64,000 nucleotides of DNA from an uncultured Bdellovibrionales bacterium (GTDB taxonomy: Bacteria; Patescibacteriota; Minisyncoccia; Moranbacterales; UBA2206), in assembly GCA_964406815.1 (NCBI GenBank), contig CAYOTC010000001.1, forward strand, positions 70 to 64,069, given 5' to 3'. The notes under the pieces are model-generated. The model ran no database searches. It saw nothing but the letters and a program-made list of their open reading frames with translations, and had not been told where the DNA came from. Position numbers and translations under genes: made by a program. Numbering within the stretch: the stretch's first letter is position 1; every line of letters starts with the position of its first letter. Positions 155 to 62,706 of this stretch are shown here, one piece after another.

Positions 155-3100
155 ATGAATCTCAAAAAGAAAACCAAATTAGGTTCCAGGTTTAAATTTT
201 ATAAGGGAAGCAGTTTTAGGGCTGGTTCTTTTTTGTTTTCGAAAAAGATAATTCTTGTATTAGCTTTGTTGATTTTATCGGCAGGGTTTCTTAGTTTTGC
301 TGGAAATGCACAAGCAATGGCTGGCGATTTGGATTTGAGTTTTTCTCCCGGAGTATTAAATGGTGCAAATGATTTGATACAATCCACAAATATCCAATCC
401 GACGGAAAAATATTAATCGGGGGATTTTTTACAACATACAATAATTACTCTATGTATTGCTCGTCTCAATTCTGATGGAACGTTGGATACATCTTTCAAC
501 CCTGGCACTGGAGCAAATAATAGTATATATGCCGTTGCTATCCAATCCGACGGAAAAATATTAATCGGAGGATCTTTTTCCTCATATAACGGCACAATAA
601 TAAATCGCATTGCCCGTCTAAATTCTGATGGTTCGCTTGATACATCTTTTAATCCCGGTATCGGCGCAAGTAGCACTATTTATTCTCTTGCCATCCAATC
701 TGATGGAAAAATATTAATTGGAGGAATTTTTTCCTTGTATAACGGTACGACAAGAAATCACATTGCCCGTCTAAATTCTGATGGATCATTAGATACATCC
801 TTTAACCCCGGCACTGGCTCAAATAGCGATATTAAATCTCTTGCCATCCAATCTGATGGAAAAATATTGATTGGAGGATATTTCACCTCATATAACGGGA
901 CTACAAGAAACTATATTGCCCGTCTAAATTCTGATGGATTATTAGATACGTCTTTTGATCCCGGCACTGGTGCAAGTAGTTTTATTTATTCTTTCTTCAT
1001 CCAATCCGATGGAAAAATAATTACTGGCGGAAACTTTACTTTATATAACGGCACGACAAGAAACCACATTGCCCGTCTAAATTCTGATGGTTCGCTTGAT
1101 ACATCCTTTGATCCAGGTACAGGCGCAAATTATGCCGTAAACTCAATTATCGTCCAATCCGATAAGGTGTTAATTGGAGGAGCCTTTACATCATATAATG
1201 GCACGACAAGAAACCACATTGCCCGTCTAAATTCTGATGGTTTACTTGATACATCCTTTGACCCCGGCACTGGCGCAAGTGGCACAATTAATTCCCTTAT
1301 CATCCAATCTGATAGCAAGCTAATTATAGGTGGGAGTTTCGGCTCATATAGTGGTGCATCTATAAATTGCATTGCTCGTCTTGATTCTGATGGAACACTG
1401 GATACTTCCTTTAATGTTAATAGTACAGGAATAAATAGTTATATAAATTCTGCAGTCATTCAATCCGACGGAAAAATATTGATTGGAGGAGCTTTTACGT
1501 CACATAATGGAATCTCTAGAAACCGCATTGCCCGTCTAAATTCTGATGGTTTACTTGATACATCCTTTGACCCCGGCACTGGCGCAAGTGGCACAATTAA
1601 TTCCCTTATCATCCAATCTGACGGGAAAATACTGATTGGTGGATCATTTTCGAACTATAATGGCATATTTAGAAACAGCATTGCTCGTCTCAATTCCGAT
1701 GGTTCACTGGATACATCTTTCAATCTTGGTACTGGTCCAAATAACTATACTCAGTCGATTGCCATTCAATCGGACGGAAAGATAGTTATTGGAGGAGGTT
1801 TTACGACATATAATGGCACAACCAGAAACTATATTGTTCGCCTAAATTCTGATAGATCATTGGATACATCATTTGATCCTGGTGCAGGAGCAAATAATAG
1901 TGTAACTTCTGTTGCTATACAATCTGACAGTAAAATATTAATCGGAGGAGGTTTTACAACATATAATGGTACAACTATAAATCGCATTGCTCGCCTTAAT
2001 TCCGATGGATCATTGGATACATCTTTTAATGTTGGTACGGGAGCGAGCAGTACTGTTCAATCTATTACCATTCAATCCGACGGAAAAGTACTAATAGGAG
2101 GATCTTTTACGTCATATAACGGCACAACTATAAACCGTATCGCTCGTCTAAATTCTGATGGTTCGCTTGATACATCTTTTAATACTGGTACTGGCACAAA
2201 TGCTTCAATTTATTCCATCAACATTCAATCCGACGGAAAAATATTAATCGGAGGAGGTTTTTCATCATATAACGGAACGGCTAGAAATAACATTGCACGG
2301 ATTAATTCTGATGGATCATTAGATAATGATTTTAACCCCGGAGCAGGAGCAAATAACTATGTGGCTTCTATTGCTCTCCAATCCGACGGAAAAGTGATCG
2401 CTGCAGGAGGTTTCAACAGCTATAACGATATTCCTGTCGCATACATCGCCAGAATCAACAATCCTCCGGTTACCACTCCAACTGTTACAACTAATGCGGT
2501 TTCTTCGATTTCATACACCATCGCCACAGGCAACGGAAATCTGACGTCAACCGGAGACGGTTCCACAACTAGATATATCCAATGGGGAATATCCTCCGGA
2601 ACATATACCTCAAGCTGTAACGCCGGAGCGACAACTTCTACCGGAAACTATTCTTGTTCTATGACTAGTCTTACTGCTGGCACGACATATTATGTCCGAG
2701 CTTATGCTACTAATTCCTCCGGAACCGGATACGGAGACGAAATAAGTTTTTCAACAACCGCCATAGCTGTTCCTACGGTAACTACTAATACTGTTACATC
2801 GATAAATTATACTACGGCTACTGGAGGAGGAAATGTCACGGCAACTAATGGCGCTAATCCGACAATCAGAGGAGTTGAATGGGGCACAGCTACTGGCTCT
2901 TACACTAACTCTTGTAATGCTGGAGCAGGAGGAATCGGAGCCTATACTTGCTCTATGACCAGCCTTACTTCCGGAACAACATATTATGTCAGAGCTTTTG
3001 CTACCAACTCCGCTGGAACCGGTTATGGAACAGAAATTAGCTTCAACACTTTATCTGGTTCTCCAACCGTTACTACTAATTCCACCACCAGCATTACTTC

Positions 3101-4373
3101 CATAGGAGCTACTGGCAATGGAAACATCACTAATACCGGAGGCAATAATCCCGAAAGATTTATCCAATGGGGAACAACTTCAGGAATCTATACCAGTGAA
3201 TGTACCGCCGGAACCGGAGGAACTGGAACGTATTCTTGTGCAATGAACAGTCTTACTCCTGAAACTACTTATTACTATCGAGCTAAAGCAACTAACTCAG
3301 GAGGAACCAGTTATGGAGATGAAAGTTCTTTTACTACTATTCCCGAAGGCATAATTATTCCCGATCCAATCCCTCAAGACATGACTGACGCTTACAATGA
3401 AGGATATATATCTATAGGAACCGGAACTCTTAATAGCACTAACCAAGTAACTACAAATCTTGACCTGACTATCACATCCAATAATGGCCAAGCCACTCTT
3501 CCCGTAAACACCCAAATCACCAACACCGACTCAGGCAACATCGATATGTCTCAATTCTCCATCTCTAACGTAACCACCCAGACCAAATCAACAATCTCCA
3601 CCACCAGAGGCTCAATCGAGATCGGTATCCCCAATACTAACTTAACTTTCTCCCAACCGATAGAAATATCAATAAGTGTAGGAACTCAATACAATGGAGA
3701 TATCCTGACTATCCAATCCCGATCCTACAACCAATCAGATTGGACCGATGAAGGCACCTGCACCGTCACCAACGGAATCTGCAGCTTCACTACCACCCAC
3801 GCCACCACCTATACCGTGAACGGAGACGGAACTATTACCGGAGAGACCAACATCAATACCAATCTCCCCATAGAATCAACCATCTCTCTCAGTTGTCCCG
3901 ATTCATTGGATCTAACCTCTATCACCGGCACCGGACAATCAACAATCGATACAAGCAACGAAGCTACCTGCAACATCGCCACCAACAACTCCAACGGCTA
4001 CAAGCTGGAATGGCAAGCTTCCAGTAATAATATGCAAAATTCCAATTCCGATACTATCAGTTCCTATACCCCAATAACTCCCAATGCTCCCGAACCTTGG
4101 CTCATCGACAATACCGCAAGTGAATGGGGAGCCAGACTAAAGAGCACCTCTACCGATAACGATACATCCACTTGGGGATTAAGTGATGGATATGACGGAA
4201 ACTGGTTAAACATAGATAACTCCACTCCATTTGAAATCATAAGAAGAACAGAAGAAACCGACCAATCCGGATCAGATGAAATCATCCAATTCGGAGCGGA
4301 AGTCGGATCAAACAAATTCCAACCTTCTGGAACTTACACTACTACAGTTACTATGACGGCGACGACGTTGTAA
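155..4373 (+). CDS. Giant secreted repeat protein. N-terminal signal peptide, then about 14 tandem ~51-aa repeats (LDTSFNPGTGA..IQSDGKILIGGSF.SYNGT.RN.IARLNSDGS; delta-60/TIGR02608-like from memory), then 3 FN3-like ~97-aa repeats and a T/S/N-rich C-terminal region. The two track ORFs (155..475 and 483..4373) look like one gene split by a frameshift near 440-482.
   Basis: Track ORFs 155..475 (signal peptide MNLKKKTKLGSRF...AGNAQA) and 483..4373. The first repeat unit is cut short (TYNNYSMYCSSQF*) while the other frame continues IARLNSDGTLDTSFNPG, matching the repeat consensus. Nucleotide periodicity 153 nt (about 330..2460) and ~290 nt x3 (about 2470..3345). Confidence 0.6.
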
Positions 4374-4443
4374 GACATATATCATATATCATGTAGCATG
4401 TAGCAGGAATCGGAGAACAAAAAACATAAAATACAAGATACGA

Positions 4444-4476
4444 AAAACAGTCTGCGGGAAGCGGGCTGTTTTTGTT
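4444..4476. terminator. Weak bidirectional terminator-like hairpin between the convergent giant-protein gene and the relA-like gene (A-run, ACAG...CTGT stem, T-run).
   Basis: aaaaACAGtctgcgggaagcgggCTGTtttt. Short stem, flanked by A and T runs. Confidence 0.3.
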
Positions 4477-4506
4477 AAATTCAACATTTAAAAATACGGA
4501 TAAATC

Positions 4507-6033
4507 TTATTTTTGATGAATTCCTATATTATCTTCGGTTTTTTTTAAGCTTTTTTTAATATGCGCTTTCGCAATGGAAGTTTTGACAAATTTCAGCCAG
4601 TCCCGACTGGGCTGTTTTTCTTCTTTAGAAGTTAATATTTCAATTACGTCTCCGTTTTTTATCGCGTAATCCAAAGGAACCATCTTACCATTCGCCTTTG
4701 CCCCAAGAGTCCTATTTCCTATGGAACTGTGAACCTTGAAAGCAAAATCGACCGGAGTGGATTCTTCCGGCAAATCGATTATATCTCCGAGCGGAGTGAA
4801 AGCGAAAATATGATTTTTGAAAAAATCAATTCGGAGACCTTCAACAAATTCTTGATTGTCTTTACCGAGTTCATTTTGCCATTCTCTAAGTTGTCGGACC
4901 CATGCCAATTCTTTTTCTGGAATATCAACCTTCGGTTTGCTTCGAAAAAAATAATCCCGAATTCCTTTTTTTCTTTCGGAATATAACCAGTGTGAAGCGA
5001 TTCCAAACTCAGCCTCGTCATCCATTTTTTTTGTACGAATCTGTATTTCCAAGAAATTTCCTTCTGGTCCAAAAATCGTTGTGTGAATCGATTGATACCC
5101 ATTGGGTTTTGGAAGAGAAACATAATCCTTAATCCTTCCGACCAAAGGGCGATATTTTTTATGGACTATTCCCAAAGCTTCATAACAATTGGTAACTTCC
5201 GAAACGATGATTCGGATCCCGATTAGATCATAAATCTTATTGATGTCCATGTCGTGTCTTTTCATTTTTTGGAATAGGCTGAAAAGATGTTTGGTTCTTC
5301 CGAAGATATCTATCACTTCAATTCCTTCAAGCTGAAGTTCTTTCTTGAGTTCCGTTATGACTTCATTAATGTATTTTTTTCGCAAATCATATTGGTCGCG
5401 AGTTAATTTGCTGACAAAATCATAATTTTCTCTGTCAAGAAATTTAAAGGATTGATCTTCGAGACGCGCTTTCATTTCTCCGATTCCCAAGCGATTGGCA
5501 ATTGGTGCAAATATTTCCAATGTTTCCAAGGCGATTCGATGGCGTTTTTCCGGTGGCAAATATTCGAGAGTTTCGATATTATGCAACCTGTCGGCAAGCT
5601 TTATAAGAACTACTCGGATATCAGCCGCCATTGCCAGAAACATTTTCCTTAAATTTTCCAAATAGAGCTCTTCTTTTGTTCCATGGAGTCTTATTTTTCC
5701 CAGTTTTGTTACACCATCAACCAGTCCGGAGATTTCTGGACCGAATTTTTTCTCTATATCTTTAAGTGTGACTTGGGTATCTTCTGAAACATCATGGAGA
5801 ATTCCGGCAGAAATCGTCTTAGATCCCATCCCGAGTTTAGCAAGATTGAGAGCAGTATGAAGTGAATGCTGGATATAATCACGGCCGGACTTTCTCAGTT
5901 GTCCTTTGTGGGCTAAGTTGGCTGTTTCATAAGCGCCACGTATCAAAGCTTCTCGTTTAAAATCTAAATTAAACCTAACGCTCTTGAGAACATCTTCAAT
6001 TGTGATTATTTCCGTGGCTGACATATTTTTCAA
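4507..6033 (-). CDS. relA: Bifunctional (p)ppGpp synthetase/hydrolase, RelA/SpoT family (HD domain, synthetase domain, TGS domain; no ACT).
   Basis: HD motif ILHDVSEDT. Synthetase-domain block KHLFSLFQKMKRHDMDINKIYDLIGIRIIV...YQSIHTTI. TGS-like IFAFTPLGDIIDLPEESTPVDFAF. Confidence 0.85.
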   Translation of the reverse strand: MKNMSATEIITIEDVLKSVRFNLDFKREALIRGAYETANLAHKGQLRKSGRDYIQHSLHTALNLAKLGMGSKTISAGILHDVSEDTQVTLKDIEKKFGPEISGLVDGVTKLGKIRLHGTKEELYLENLRKMFLAMAADIRVVLIKLADRLHNIETLEYLPPEKRHRIALETLEIFAPIANRLGIGEMKARLEDQSFKFLDRENYDFVSKLTRDQYDLRKKYINEVITELKKELQLEGIEVIDIFGRTKHLFSLFQKMKRHDMDINKIYDLIGIRIIVSEVTNCYEALGIVHKKYRPLVGRIKDYVSLPKPNGYQSIHTTIFGPEGNFLEIQIRTKKMDDEAEFGIASHWLYSERKKGIRDYFFRSKPKVDIPEKELAWVRQLREWQNELGKDNQEFVEGLRIDFFKNHIFAFTPLGDIIDLPEESTPVDFAFKVHSSIGNRTLGAKANGKMVPLDYAIKNGDVIEILTSKEEKQPSRDWLKFVKTSIAKAHIKKSLKKTEDNIGIHQK

Positions 6034-35275: not shown

Positions 35276-35402
35276 TTATTATTCTAGCATATAGACAAGG
35301 GGGATAATTTTTTGTATCATAGCAAGGTAGCCAAAATAATTGGCATATTTGGGTTATGTCAAGTTGGACTCTCATTAGCTTTTTTAGATGAATTTGTAAT
35401 TA

Positions 35403-35475
35403 GCCACCTTAGCTCAGTTGGTAGAGCAACAGTTTTGTAAACTGTGGGTCGTCAGTTCAAGTCTGACAGGTGGCT
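35403..35475 (+). tRNA. tRNA-Thr (anticodon TGT).
   Basis: Manual fold. Acceptor GCCACCT/AGGTGGC, D-arm GCTCAGTTGGTAGAGC, anticodon stem ACAGT/ACTGT with loop TTTGTAA, T-arm GTCAG-TTCAAGT-CTGAC. Confidence 0.85.
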
Positions 35476-35584
35476 CGGAAACATATATCATATATCTTAT
35501 AACATATAGCAGAAGTGTAGTGGTATTTTTCACGTTATTAATTTTTTATTATATGATTTATGTTCTGTGATATAGAGGATTATT

Positions 35585-35667
35585 GGGTAGGTGGCGGAGT
35601 GGTCAATCGCAGCTGACTGTAAATCAGCCGACTTCGGTCTACGGGGGTTCGAATCCCTCCCTGCCCA
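35585..35667 (+). tRNA. tRNA-Tyr (anticodon GTA) with long variable arm.
   Basis: Anticodon stem-loop GCTGA-CTGTAAA-TCAGC. Long variable arm. T-arm GGGGG-TTCGAAT-CCCTC. Acceptor GGGTAGG/CCTGCCC (one G-U). Confidence 0.8.
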
Positions 35668-35753
35668 CAGAGAAAGTTAAAAATAAAATATAAAAAAGTA
35701 AGAAGTCTTTATATGATTTTTGATTTTTAAATTTTTATTTTTGATATTTTTCT

Positions 35754-35826
35754 GCCGTTGTAGCTCAGCTGGTAGAGCATTTCCATGGTAAGGAAAAGGT
35801 CTCCGGTTCAATCCCGGACAACGGCT
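35754..35826 (+). tRNA. tRNA-Thr (anticodon GGT).
   Basis: Acceptor GCCGTTG/CAACGGC. Anticodon stem-loop TTTCC-ATGGTAA-GGAAA. T-arm CCGGTTCAATCCCGG. The order Thr(UGU)-Tyr-Thr(GGU) mirrors E. coli thrU-tyrU-(glyT)-thrT. Confidence 0.85.
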
Positions 35827-35915
35827 CCGTAATTAAATGATCAAATTGTTAAATAGCTAAATTGTTGTTGATTTATTGACAATTTAATAATGTAGCAATT
35901 TAGCAATATAAATAT

Positions 35916-36071
35916 ATGACTAGAGAAAATCTGGTGAAGATGAGATGTGAAGTTTGTAAGAGAACGAATTATTTCACTTCAAAAAACAAGAAAAAACTTA
36001 AGGAAAAACTGGAACTTAAGAAATATTGCCTGAAATGCAAGAAGCATACCGCGCACAAAGAGGTGAAATAA
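35916..36071 (+). CDS. rpmG: Ribosomal protein L33 (51 aa; below the ORF-track cutoff).
   Basis: Manual translation [52 protein letters not shown]33 signature Y.T.KNK...KLEL.KYC..C.KH..HKE.K. Confidence 0.8.
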
Positions 36072-36119
36072 CATAATGCTATGGCAGAAGCGGGCTTGCT
36101 CGCCGAAGCTAAAGATTCG

Positions 36120-36186
36120 GCGGGATTCGTACAGTGTTAGTACGGCGGTCTCCAACCCCGCCTTTCGCGAAAGGCGGGGCGATTCC
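36120..36186 (+). pseudogene. Degenerate partial copy of tRNA-Trp. The 5' 36 nt are 35/36 identical to the intact gene; this is followed by a perfect 10-bp GC hairpin replacing the anticodon-3'/variable/T-stem region, then CGATTCC (a T-loop remnant).
   Basis: GCGGGATTCGTACAGTGtTAGTACGGCGGTCTCCAA versus the intact GCGGGATTCGTACAGTGgTAGTACGGCGGTCTCCAA. Then CCCCGCCTTTcgcgAAAGGCGGGG, then cgattcc. Confidence 0.6.
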
Positions 36187-36194
36187 ATAAAAAT

Positions 36195-36443
36195 ATGTAT
36201 TATGTATATTTGCTAAAAAGTCGTAAAGATCAGGGATATTATATAGGGTTTTCAGAAAATATTGATTTTCGATTTCAACAACATTGTAACGGATTGGTTG
36301 TTTCCACAAAAAATAGAAGGCTTCTGGATTTGATTTATTTTGAATCATATTCATCAAAAGAGTTGGCACAAGAAAGGGAGAAGAATCTTAAAAAATTCGG
36401 ATCGGCCTACAGCGGACTTTTGAAAAGATTGTGCGAAAAATAA
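36195..36443 (+). CDS. GIY-YIG nuclease-family small protein (82 aa).
   Basis: MYYVYLLKSRKDQGYYIGFSENIDFRFQQHCNG matches the GIY...YIG...R..H...N core of the GIY-YIG superfamily. Confidence 0.65.
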   Translation: MYYVYLLKSRKDQGYYIGFSENIDFRFQQHCNGLVVSTKNRRLLDLIYFESYSSKELAQEREKNLKKFGSAYSGLLKRLCEK

Positions 36444-36447
36444 AACT

Positions 36448-36518
36448 GCGGGATTCGTACAGTGGTAGTACGGCGGTCTCCAAAACCGTTGACGTAGGTT
36501 CGATTCCTACATCCCGTG
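36448..36518 (+). tRNA. tRNA-Trp (anticodon CCA).
   Basis: Acceptor GCGGGAT/ATCCCGT (terminal G-U). D-arm GTAC-AGTGGTA-GTAC. Anticodon stem-loop GCGGT-CTCCAAA-ACCGT. T-arm GTAGG-TTCGATT-CCTAC. Confidence 0.8.
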
Positions 36519-36617
36519 CATCGTGAATTCGAACCATAAAGAGGCTTGAAGAAGGCCTCTTTTTTGGTTGTAATATTTTGTGATAAAATTAATTTATTGG
36601 TATTAAACTAAAAAATT

Positions 36618-37178
36618 ATGAATCTTGAACAATCAAAGGAAACAAAAAAAACAAAAGAAAAATTACTTGAAATAACTGTTGAAACTAAACGGCTTATTTT
36701 AAAACCAGTATCTTTAGAATATAAGAATATAATCTTTTCAGAATTTACTGATTATACGACAAAGTTTATGTATCCCTCAGCACCAAAAGATGTAGCAGAT
36801 ACTGAAAAATTTATTAAAAAGTCAATGGAGGATATAAAAAAAGGGACAGATTTCGTAGCAAGTATTTTTGATAAGAAAACAAACGATTTTTTAGGTGGTG
36901 TAGGAATTCATCATATAGATACAAAGACGCCTGAATTGGGGATATGGATCAAAAGATCAGCTTATGGCAACAAATATGGGCAAGAGGCAGTGGCTGGTTT
37001 AAAAAAATGGGCTGATAAGAATTTAGAATATGAATATTTATTATATCCAGTTGCGAAAGAAAATATTGCTAGCCGAAAAATTCCAGAATCTATGGGCGGT
37101 AAAGTGGTAAGGGAATTCATTGGTAAAAAAGAAAACGGAGAGGATATGGAAGAAGTGGAGTATAGGATTTATAAATAA
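36618..37178 (+). CDS. GNAT-family N-acetyltransferase (RimJ/RimL-like).
   Basis: TKRLILKP...LGGVGIHHID...LGIWIKRSAYGNKYGQEAVAGL matches GNAT motifs A/B. Confidence 0.65.
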   Translation: MNLEQSKETKKTKEKLLEITVETKRLILKPVSLEYKNIIFSEFTDYTTKFMYPSAPKDVADTEKFIKKSMEDIKKGTDFVASIFDKKTNDFLGGVGIHHIDTKTPELGIWIKRSAYGNKYGQEAVAGLKKWADKNLEYEYLLYPVAKENIASRKIPESMGGKVVREFIGKKENGEDMEEVEYRIYK

Positions 37179-38165: not shown

Positions 38166-38291
38166 TTTAATTACAGGAGAGTTGGAATAACAGGCAATTT
38201 GTCATTGGACAAATTGCCTGTTTTTAGAATTTTTTATGAAAAATATGCTATAATAAAAGCATATTTTTTAATGGAGAAATAGATAAATCGC

Positions 38292-42686: not shown

Positions 42687-42793
42687 AAACGACGGGCAAC
42701 TTGTCATTAGACAAGTTGCCCGTTTTTGTATCTTTAAAAACAAAAAAATTGGCGCCGGATTTGCCATTTGGTGTATAATGAAAGCGATAAATA

Positions 42794-62627: not shown

Positions 62628-62706
62628 CTCCGCGGTCCCGCTCAAAAGCGGGACCGCGGCTTTCATTTCTGCCCAAAGCCCCAGTGGGCCTGTTTTGGTT
62701 TTGGCT
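62628..62706 (+). terminator. Terminator region after murF: perfect 12-bp GC hairpin, then a second hairpin with a T-rich tail.
   Basis: CCGCGGTCCCGCtcaaaaGCGGGACCGCGG...GCCCAaagccccagTGGGCctgttttggttttgg. Confidence 0.55.

Follow-up and report, generated by a model that had tools for sequence, protein, structure and literature searches.

The 64,000-nucleotide (nt) stretch of contig CAYOTC010000001.1 analyzed here, referred to as the window, is AT-rich (36.5% GC) and Patescibacteria-like. Just downstream of the ribosomal protein gene rpmG it encodes a small GIY-YIG nuclease, whose open reading frame (ORF) lies between a disabled partial copy and an intact copy of the same tRNA-Trp gene. The partial copy is broken by a GC-rich palindrome, and the combination of tRNA piece, palindrome and ORF recurs as a cassette in related genomes. 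Related loci with which it was compared carry labels of the form L001 or L127. The features of the window locus are as follows.

35916–36071, + strand: rpmG, encoding ribosomal protein L33 (PF00471, E 8.6e-17).
36120–36155, + strand: disabled tRNA-Trp copy, nt 1–37, identical to 36448–36483 at 35 of 36 positions.
36156–36179, no strand: perfect 24-nt GC palindrome, CCCCGCCTTTCGCGAAAGGCGGGG, with a 10-bp stem, taking the place of tRNA nt 38–55.
36180–36186, + strand: CGATTCC, the 3' remnant of the disabled copy (T-loop/T-stem), identical to 36501–36507.
36195–36443, + strand: domain-only GIY-YIG nuclease ORF of 82 amino acids (PF01541).
36448–36518, + strand: intact tRNA-Trp(CCA), called by ARAGORN and by the Rfam tRNA model (66.3 bits).
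36538–36570, + strand: intrinsic terminator (also delimited as 36538–36562) closing the unit of rpmG, disabled tRNA copy, GIY-YIG ORF and tRNA-Trp, also kept in the insert-free locus L127.

The disabled copy consists of the 5' strand of the acceptor stem, the D arm, the 5' strand of the anticodon stem and the anticodon loop through A37, and its single mismatch to the intact tRNA-Trp is a G-to-T change in the GG of the D-loop. The original prediction, made from the letters of the window, described a 35/36 match to the start of the tRNA that ends at about position 37/38. Alignment bears out both points: in a longer comparison (36120–36160 against 36448–36488) 38 of 41 positions match, and the identity breaks off past tRNA position 37. 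The 10-bp GC hairpin noticed next to the breakpoint proved to be a perfect palindrome that occurs nowhere else in the window (none expected from 100 shuffles), and the CGATTCC that follows does match the T-loop of the real gene, as had been proposed. The 3' anticodon strand, the variable loop, the 5' strand of the T-stem and the 3' strand of the acceptor stem are all missing. When the upstream copy was tested as a possible distinct, functional tRNA it did not score as one, with no ARAGORN call and no RF00005 match at E ≤ 10 in 36072–36200. The gene at 36448–36518, by its sequence, is presumably the functional one; its 3' end is 36518 by Rfam and 36519 by ARAGORN, so that the end coordinate given earlier was correct to within 1 nt, and the stop codon of the ORF lies 4 nt ahead of the start of this gene.

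Two smaller observations concern the same tRNA and its surroundings. At the top of the acceptor stem, G1 faces U72 (a G·U pair) in the tRNA-Trp of the window and of most related loci, with A1 in L020; the usual pair in bacterial tRNA-Trp is A1-U72. A short GC hairpin, GCGGGCTTGCTCGC, also lies 3' of rpmG just before the disabled copy (36090–36103) and is conserved in L012 (281–294). Since insert-free loci too have a GC hairpin after this gene, the one here probably belongs to the host, as the 3' stem of rpmG.

An interruption at this place in a tRNA calls to mind an integrase island, with its att-site duplication, or a group I or bulge-helix-bulge intron containing an ORF, since tRNA genes are classic integration sites and the breakpoint is in the anticodon loop, at what the original prediction called the canonical intron point. 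The breakpoint is indeed there, but this resemblance does not speak for an intron: an Rfam scan of the window locus at E ≤ 10 found no other family, no intron, group I or otherwise, and no ribozyme, and the working tRNA is uninterrupted. The intron study cited for comparison, moreover, has HNH enzymes, not GIY-YIG, and leaves Trp unmentioned. As for an island, the neighbors of the window cassette are the L33 gene and an ORF for a GNAT acetyltransferase, with no integrase or recombinase adjoining it, and the duplicated part is the 5' half of the tRNA, not its 3' end. Either explanation is scarcely credible, and for the window we take both to be refuted by the duplication on the 5' side and by the failure to find an integrase or a ribozyme.

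The identification of the ORF as a GIY-YIG gene was confirmed by PF01541, which matches residues 1–67 (51.9 bits, cutoff 22.6; E 9.7e-14); the placement of the locus downstream of rpmG was likewise confirmed by the PF00471 match. Across 27 homologues, no substitution occurs at the catalytic residues Y2, Y3, Y16, G18, H30 or E62, and R26 is kept in at least 90%. The AlphaFold2 (AF2) model, with a predicted local distance difference test (pLDDT) score of 94.5, has strands at residues 2–9 and 15–20, a helix at 23–31, a strand at 44–52, and helices at 55–66 and 70–78, in agreement with the beta-beta-alpha-beta-alpha-alpha GIY-YIG fold. Foldseek ranks 1–9 are occupied by 1zg2 (a domain-only UPF0213 protein), seven Slx1 chains and 1ywl (EF2693, a small uncharacterized protein). 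The Slx1 structure 7cq3 aligns to the model with a template modeling (TM) score of 0.68, a root-mean-square deviation of 1.5 Å and 28% identity; I-TevI follows at rank 10 (TM ~0.5) and UvrC at rank 15. The only match to a PDB sequence, a weak one, is again 1zg2 (E 7e-4). By its nearest neighbors in sequence and modeled structure, the window protein is thus assigned to the Slx1/YhbQ/UPF0213 branch.

The protein finishes at residue 82, right past the catalytic core, and lacks the C-terminal PHD/RING-type zinc finger. It is a single domain, with no linker and no DNA-binding module of the I-TevI/Seg type. SegB, at about 220 amino acids, has a DNA-binding region and is sequence-tolerant but site-specific. 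The intron/Seg-type profile TIGR01453 stays below threshold for the window protein (14.5 bits vs. a cutoff of 56.05), as do the PHROG homing-endonuclease families (phrog_5123, E 0.016), and no family in NCBIfam, PHROGs or the defence-system profiles of PADLOC scores above threshold. The ratio of nonsynonymous to synonymous substitution rates (dN/dS) for the ORF is 0.16–0.42, with a median of 0.23, and the ORF is therefore under purifying selection; the protein is presumably an active nuclease. The homologues of the window ORF are Patescibacteria proteins of 82–85 amino acids, and the family as a whole is large, with 2,695 clusters at 50% identity for E ≤ 1e-3 and 144 for E ≤ 1e-10. Exact-sequence look-ups of the window GIY-YIG and L33 proteins gave no match, and that of PSP1 yielded just one contig of 2 kb, which breaks off ahead of the locus.

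To place the cassette among genomes, a junction pattern, CAACCNCGCNNNTCGCGANNNGCGNGGCGATT, in which 4 of the 10 stem pairs of the palindrome were left free, was scanned against one genome per species and matched 26 contigs. Most of these are labeled Patescibacteria (Moran-, Magasanik-, Uhr-, Doudna-, Falkow- and Parcubacteria); seven TPA bins carry Gammaproteobacteria or Bdellovibrionales labels, which are probably mislabels. The L33 of the window has its best relatives in Moranbacteria. The canonical layout of tRNA nt 1–37, palindrome, GIY-YIG ORF and tRNA is present at no fewer than 15 tRNA-Trp loci and two tRNA-Cys loci in genome bins, with further copies in metagenomes, and the tRNA piece (nt 1–37) was found in more than 20 related loci. 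Synteny between L011 and the window covers tsf, PSP1, TPR, the tRNAs and rpmG; half-copy, palindrome, ORF and tRNA-Trp come next, and these last four elements have the same order in L012 to L015. The same ORF family adjoins tRNA-Cys(GCA) in Magasanikbacteria (L001 to L010). Here a full-length tRNA-Cys copy precedes the ORF, with exactly nt 38–55 swapped for the same palindrome, and an ORF remnant and a second palindrome-bearing copy lie downstream.

The 3' part of the disabled copy is complete to the tRNA 3' end in L001 and L045. Such copies appear to be younger, and that of the window would then have decayed at its 3' end to 7 nt. A separate feature of several loci is that the GIY-YIG frame enters the downstream tRNA and stops at the conserved U8-A9-G10 (TAG), giving an overlap of 9–14 nt (L001 3243–3252, L050, L086, L120). 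In L011, a large serine recombinase (Resolvase and Zn_ribbon_recom domains; 3310–4911, – strand) lies directly 3' of tRNA-Trp, and is possibly a separate integrated element at the same tRNA.

The recurrence bears directly on the simplest account of the locus, a chance tandem duplication of tRNA-Trp that is decaying around an unrelated small ORF. The window copy has indeed lost its 3' part and has one D-loop mutation, but its breakpoints, palindrome and ORF family are shared by over 20 independent loci, which involve two tRNA species, and the palindrome co-varies. We consider chance duplication refuted by this recurrence and its probability negligible. The original prediction of a small mobile endonuclease gene at a tRNA with partial target duplication is supported, but the locus is more than a one-off footprint: the cassette is widespread and the ORF is under purifying selection. 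On comparative grounds the cassette is a conserved, widespread module rather than a private, decaying scar.

The palindrome itself is conserved in 26 genome loci, as well as in metagenome loci. Across 26 distinct copies, 96.2% of the cells in its stem are paired, compared to only 53–64% in slid-register controls, and 24 cells are altered on both sides, i.e., compensated. The covariation score is 0.272 vs. 0.121 in shuffles, with none of 500 shuffles as high. One variable pair occurs as CG, GC, UA, AU and GU, and the next as CG, UA and UG. The hairpin is therefore kept either by selection or by copying from arm to arm. The nucleotides right after it follow the local tRNA variant (CAATTCC in L051, CGATCCC in L045) and are thus tRNA-derived, whereas the palindrome does not stem from the tRNA. 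When the proteins are clustered, all palindrome-associated Trp and Cys ORFs fall in one cluster, and ORFs of an inverted-repeat type, described below, in a sister clade. Hairpin type and nuclease lineage thus travel together, the palindrome being confined to one GIY-YIG clade. The GC hairpin, in which the original prediction saw a possible structured remnant, is therefore no remnant of tRNA sequence: it is a foreign, conserved and co-varying palindrome that tracks one nuclease clade.

Folding of 36072–36200 as RNA gave modest z-scores (–2.0 and –1.7), with a structure that is mostly the palindrome and no convincing larger fold in this interval. Two pairings were also considered, one between the orphan anticodon-stem strand and the T-stem strand and one between the palindrome and the tRNA 5' end, and both were rejected, as by eye neither is general across loci. 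The window contains further intergenic, GC-rich perfect or near-perfect palindromes at 55105–55134, 62630–62659, 38189–38222 and 42692–42723, the last two mutually related (GGCAAyTTGTCATTrGACAArTTGCC). These are probably terminators or a small repeat family; none is close to the palindrome of the cassette, and no link to the cassette was found.

Relatives with rpmG and a single tRNA-Trp, and with no ORF, palindrome or half-copy, were envisaged by the original prediction and do exist. Four such loci (L123, L124, L127, L128), found via L33 homologues, have the order tsf, PSP1, TPR, tRNA-Thr/Tyr/Thr, rpmG, tRNA-Trp, terminator, with about 120 nt separating rpmG from the tRNA; in the window, too, rpmG is preceded by a tRNA-Thr/Tyr/Thr cluster. 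The tRNA-Trp of L127 is identical to that of the window at 68 of 71 positions. These empty alleles stand beside filled ones in the window, L011, L016 and others. Two of the empty loci, L123 and L124, come from the same sample (ERZ27233565) and have identical L33 and near-identical spacers, yet different tRNA-Trp (D arm GTGA/TCAC vs. GTTT/GAAC), which hints at tRNA gene replacement between co-existing strains.

Traces of exchange are seen within the filled loci. The half-copy equals the neighboring tRNA at 36 of 36 positions in about 13 loci, and at only 27–30 of 36 in L011, L012, L016, L036 and L038, where it is still a well-formed tRNA-Trp 5' half. Such divergent half-copies equal the genuine tRNA-Trp of another lineage: those of L012 and L016 correspond to the tRNA of L011, and that of L036 to the tRNA of L016. 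In L042 and L043 a mirror-image isomer occurs, in which the tRNA and ORF are followed by nt 28–37, the palindrome and nt 56–76. Palindrome-bearing mini copies, with perfect identity on the 3' side only, follow the intact tRNA both where the ORF is present (L001, L021, L037, L038) and where it is absent and the palindrome is solo (L025, L027). There are also tandem arrays (L041, L043, L017) and ORF remnants (L001, L039, L043). Disabling changes in the tRNA copy differ among loci, from GG to GT in the D-loop of the window to a CCA-to-CTA anticodon in L042 and indels in L022 and L043. In layout, the two isomers are circular permutations of one unit made up of disabled tRNA and ORF, as single crossovers in the 5' or 3' arm of the tRNA would give. 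Residence at the locus is long-term and mostly vertical, punctuated by exchange and loss.

The nuclease family extends well beyond tRNA-Trp and tRNA-Cys. For a metagenome scan the 27-sequence alignment was too diverse; with a closer alignment of 8 sequences, the scan yielded more than 486 relatives, and the context of 102 complete ORFs was tallied. An intact tRNA (Trp, Cys, Ser, Glu or Gln) lies just 3' of the ORF, without bracketing repeats, in 31 of the 102; eight have a 3' tRNA (Ala, Val) and an ORF inside inverted repeats; 35 have the ORF inside GC-rich inverted repeats of 10–21 nt and no tRNA; five have a tRNA upstream; and 23 have neither tRNA nor inverted repeats. Inverted repeats of 10–21 nt thus bracket 43 of the 102 ORFs, in the form 5' CCCCCACACCAATT ... 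ORF ... AATTGGTGTGGGGG 3', which puts the ORF in the loop of a long-range hairpin. ORFs of this type are located within rRNA genes, both 16S (L060 2013–3815) and 23S (L088 ~2440–2790), at the 5' end of the RNase P RNA gene (L048 ~2460–3250, L063, L103/L105), and at junctions between protein genes. At the rRNA and RNase P RNA insertions, the host RNA sequence picks up again right after the right-hand repeat.

Several relatives have 4-bp direct repeats (TAAA, TTGA, TCCA). Single and tandem inverted-repeat hairpins without an ORF adjoin ORF-bearing copies in L061 (~500–615), L066 (~2350–2500) and L096 (~2350–2500), and look like derivatives of the kind known as miniature inverted-repeat transposable elements (MITEs). 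Members of the Ala/Val group have the first 9–11 nt of the tRNA directly repeated on the two sides of the hairpin-bracketed ORF, so that here too an intact tRNA is regenerated on the right. In other tRNA-linked members, short GC hairpins (CCCCGC...GCGGGG-like), one or two per copy, break the upstream pseudo-tRNA in the D-loop, anticodon loop or variable region; the hairpin of L050 has TCCA on either side. Beyond the Patescibacteria, in the Omnitrophota sequence CP070837.1 (L130), a GIY-YIG homologue is situated between two tRNA-fMet-like 5' fragments (1385–1500 and 1757–1800), the upstream one broken by two hairpins and the second read through by the ORF (112 amino acids), with no intact tRNA called nearby.

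The existence of both empty and filled alleles would suit a classical homing endonuclease of the I-TevI/SegB type, which would cut a naive tRNA-Trp at or near nt 38–55 and spread by repair from the filled allele, with the palindrome as the mark of a resistant copy. The segment replaced by the palindrome is the same in tRNA-Trp and tRNA-Cys, whose anticodon arms are nearly identical (GGTCTCCAA and GGTCTGCAA). There is also a phage precedent, as the GIY-YIG enzyme SegB cuts tRNA gene DNA, is enriched beside tRNA genes, and drives amplification of tRNA and segB together (PMC2330249, PMC13096335). However, the window protein is an 82-residue catalytic domain alone, its scores fall short of the homing families (14.5 vs. 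56 bits for TIGR01453, E ~0.02 for PHROG), and its fold is closer to Slx1/UPF0213 than to I-TevI. Every carrier, moreover, has an intact and hence cleavable tRNA-Trp 4 nt from the ORF, and relatives occupy many unrelated targets. Classical homing is thus an unlikely explanation for the cassette.

The position of the cassette also has consequences for its expression. No sigma-70-like promoter was detected on the + strand between rpmG and tRNA-Trp in the window, and the terminator after tRNA-Trp is the only terminator-like site in 35300–36700. The insert-free locus L127, by comparison, has TTGACT-17-TATAAT just ahead of tRNA-Trp. The tRNA-Trp of the window would thus be made from a read-through transcript that includes rpmG, the disabled copy, the ORF and the tRNA, with rpmG as the probable source of transcription for the cassette. 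Such a transcript would guarantee that the ORF is transcribed, and because the cassette sits between rpmG and the tRNA, the host could hardly silence it without losing tRNA-Trp.

Likely co-transcription with rpmG and the tRNA is equally what one would expect of a domesticated host nuclease, acting in repair or RNA-gene maintenance, with the tRNA-like piece and hairpin as a 5' regulatory or stabilizing RNA element of an rpmG–tRNA-Trp operon. The ORF is under purifying selection and conserved like L33, with which it partly co-diverges, the hairpin co-varies, and in the window-type layout it is always 5' of the ORF. Against such a role, close syntenic relatives do without the whole module, remnants of the ORF and hairpins on their own are frequent, the target is Trp in some carriers and Cys in others, and the mirror-image layout has the palindrome 3' of the ORF. 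Tandem arrays and foreign tRNA halves exist, relatives are found inside rRNA and RNase P RNA genes, and the tRNA copy bears disabling changes (window, L042, L022, L043). We therefore judge domestication to be quite improbable.

The reading that best accommodates these results is that positions 36120–36519 are a selfish nuclease cassette in a target duplication, which recombines via its tRNA homology and has the palindrome as a hairpin-forming cis element; taken as a whole, we put its chances at somewhat better than even. The part of it that calls for a mobile cassette with target duplication we hold to be likely, and the part that makes the palindrome the substrate of the nuclease is a tentative proposal, with chances short of even. 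On this selfish-cassette reading, essential tRNA function would be preserved through duplication, not splicing. The tRNA sequence on both sides would provide portable homology arms, the only sequence conserved between divergent hosts, and with tRNA on both flanks the cassette could integrate, be precisely lost, and be exchanged between lineages. Integration into a naive tRNA-Trp might proceed by a single crossover of an excised or incoming unit, or by break repair, and precise loss by recombination between the repeats, with gene conversion between the copies as a further outcome. The palindrome would most plausibly form a DNA hairpin or cruciform, which the Slx1-like enzyme would nick or cut to set off recombination.

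Viewed together with the wider family, the cassette could even represent a new class of prokaryotic mobile element, with an Slx1-like, structure-selective GIY-YIG nuclease of about 80 amino acids as its sole protein and a GC-rich DNA hairpin as its cis element, of which the window element would be the tRNA-Trp-resident branch. In autonomous copies the hairpin loop would hold the ORF, hairpins lacking one, the palindrome among them, would be MITE-like derivatives, and the element would colonize genes for structured RNAs (tRNA, 16S, 23S, RNase P RNA), which would tolerate it as an added stem-loop or, in the case of tRNAs, through target duplication. We consider this idea less likely than not, though with a real chance of being right.

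Several results weigh against the selfish-cassette reading or parts of it. The GIY-YIG protein is conserved like L33 (mean identity 61% vs. 56%, r = 0.49, 14 loci), and all ORF pairs are old (dS > 0.8), with no very recent transfer caught; the cassette is therefore a long-term resident and largely vertical. Neither a circular junction nor polymorphism between empty and filled alleles within a population was observed. A break at the palindrome would in cis favor loss of the cassette via annealing of the repeats. G·U and C·A exceptions in the palindrome are about equally frequent, with no strand bias, and an RNA hairpin and a DNA hairpin are therefore indistinguishable. The ORF of the window clade is outside the hairpin, unlike that of its relatives: the window ORF has no bracketing inverted repeat longer than 6 nt, and the palindrome is a closed one beside it. 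Finally, the replacement of nt 38–55 by the palindrome does not follow from a simple 4-bp target duplication like that of L050 (TCCA|hairpin|TCCA). This route, taken with either one insertion or two, was rejected, as the CAA|palindrome|CGATT junctions are not matched without ad hoc shifts.

If correct, the selfish-cassette reading would add a third strategy by which a selfish gene can persist within an essential one, the other two being splicing (introns and inteins) and the restoration of att sites (integrases). It would also tie a large, uncharacterized family of domain-only GIY-YIG proteins to a testable cis element, the GC hairpins, which could reveal the substrates of these enzymes. In practice, tRNA counts, gene calling and assembly for the reduced genomes of the candidate phyla radiation (CPR) can be led astray by pseudo-tRNAs that contain a hairpin and by ORFs whose stop lies within a tRNA. 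Literature searches found no description of a tRNA-linked, palindrome-bearing cassette, and the known systems that it resembles each share some of its features.

Slx1, YhbQ and YazA (UPF0213, URI-domain; PDB 1zg2, 7cq3) provide the best matches in sequence and fold, with the same catalytic core. To our knowledge, YhbQ and YazA have not been linked with tRNA duplications or palindromes. The window protein differs from Slx1 in having no zinc-finger domain and no Slx4-like partner. The three proteins form one family of structure-selective nucleases (PMC7017083), and Slx1 cuts branched and stem-loop DNA, which suits an enzyme associated with hairpins.

SegB of phages T4 and T6 is a GIY-YIG gene beside tRNA genes, and tRNA gene DNA is involved in its mobility. 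Like the cassette, it forms tandem tRNA-plus-nuclease repeats via recombination, and phage segB is statistically enriched near tRNAs (PMC2330249, PMC13096335). SegB differs in being phage-borne, with neither palindrome nor disabled tRNA copy, and in its protein: that of the window falls below the intron/Seg-type profiles and is closer in fold to Slx1.

The palindromes have a counterpart in the transposable-element-like GC clusters of fungal and yeast mitochondria, which are also short, GC-rich and palindromic, occur sporadically in an AT-rich genome, and show short target duplications, mergers and tandem copies (PMC4478555). Unlike the cassette, these clusters have no coding content, and they are not known to have a nuclease of their own.

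A study of CPR rRNA genes has already noted GIY-YIG ORFs in insertions other than group I and group II introns (PMC11270868), and L060 and L088 are cases of such insertions. That study leaves inverted repeats, hairpins, and tRNA or RNase P RNA targets unmentioned (PMC11270868). Our results would give some of these insertions (one 16S, L060, and one 23S, L088) a shared layout, with the ORF enclosed by GC-rich inverted repeats, and would extend them to tRNA and RNase P RNA genes.

A parallel to the layout as a whole is found in the mobile ORFs (mORFs) of mitochondria, which carry a duplicate of part of their target gene, e.g., atp6 in Allomyces and atp6, atp9, cox2 and nad3 in Glomus (PMC3630166). 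As in the cassette, a free-standing endonuclease ORF (LAGLIDADG, or GIY-YIG in atp9) resides in an essential gene, whose function is saved by the copy borne on the element, and the displaced native segment stays behind as a pseudo-copy; the two copies may differ in origin, showing horizontal transfer (PMC3630166). In the window, too, the ORF is flanked by a functional and a displaced copy of the same gene segment. The cassette differs from mORFs in its location in a bacterial chromosome instead of an organelle, in its target (a tRNA rather than a protein gene), and in duplicating the 5' part. Its disabled copy has a conserved GC palindrome, and its nuclease is a minimal domain of 82 amino acids. 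Should the selfish-cassette reading hold, the mitochondrial mobile ORF with its duplicated piece of the target would have an equivalent on a bacterial chromosome.

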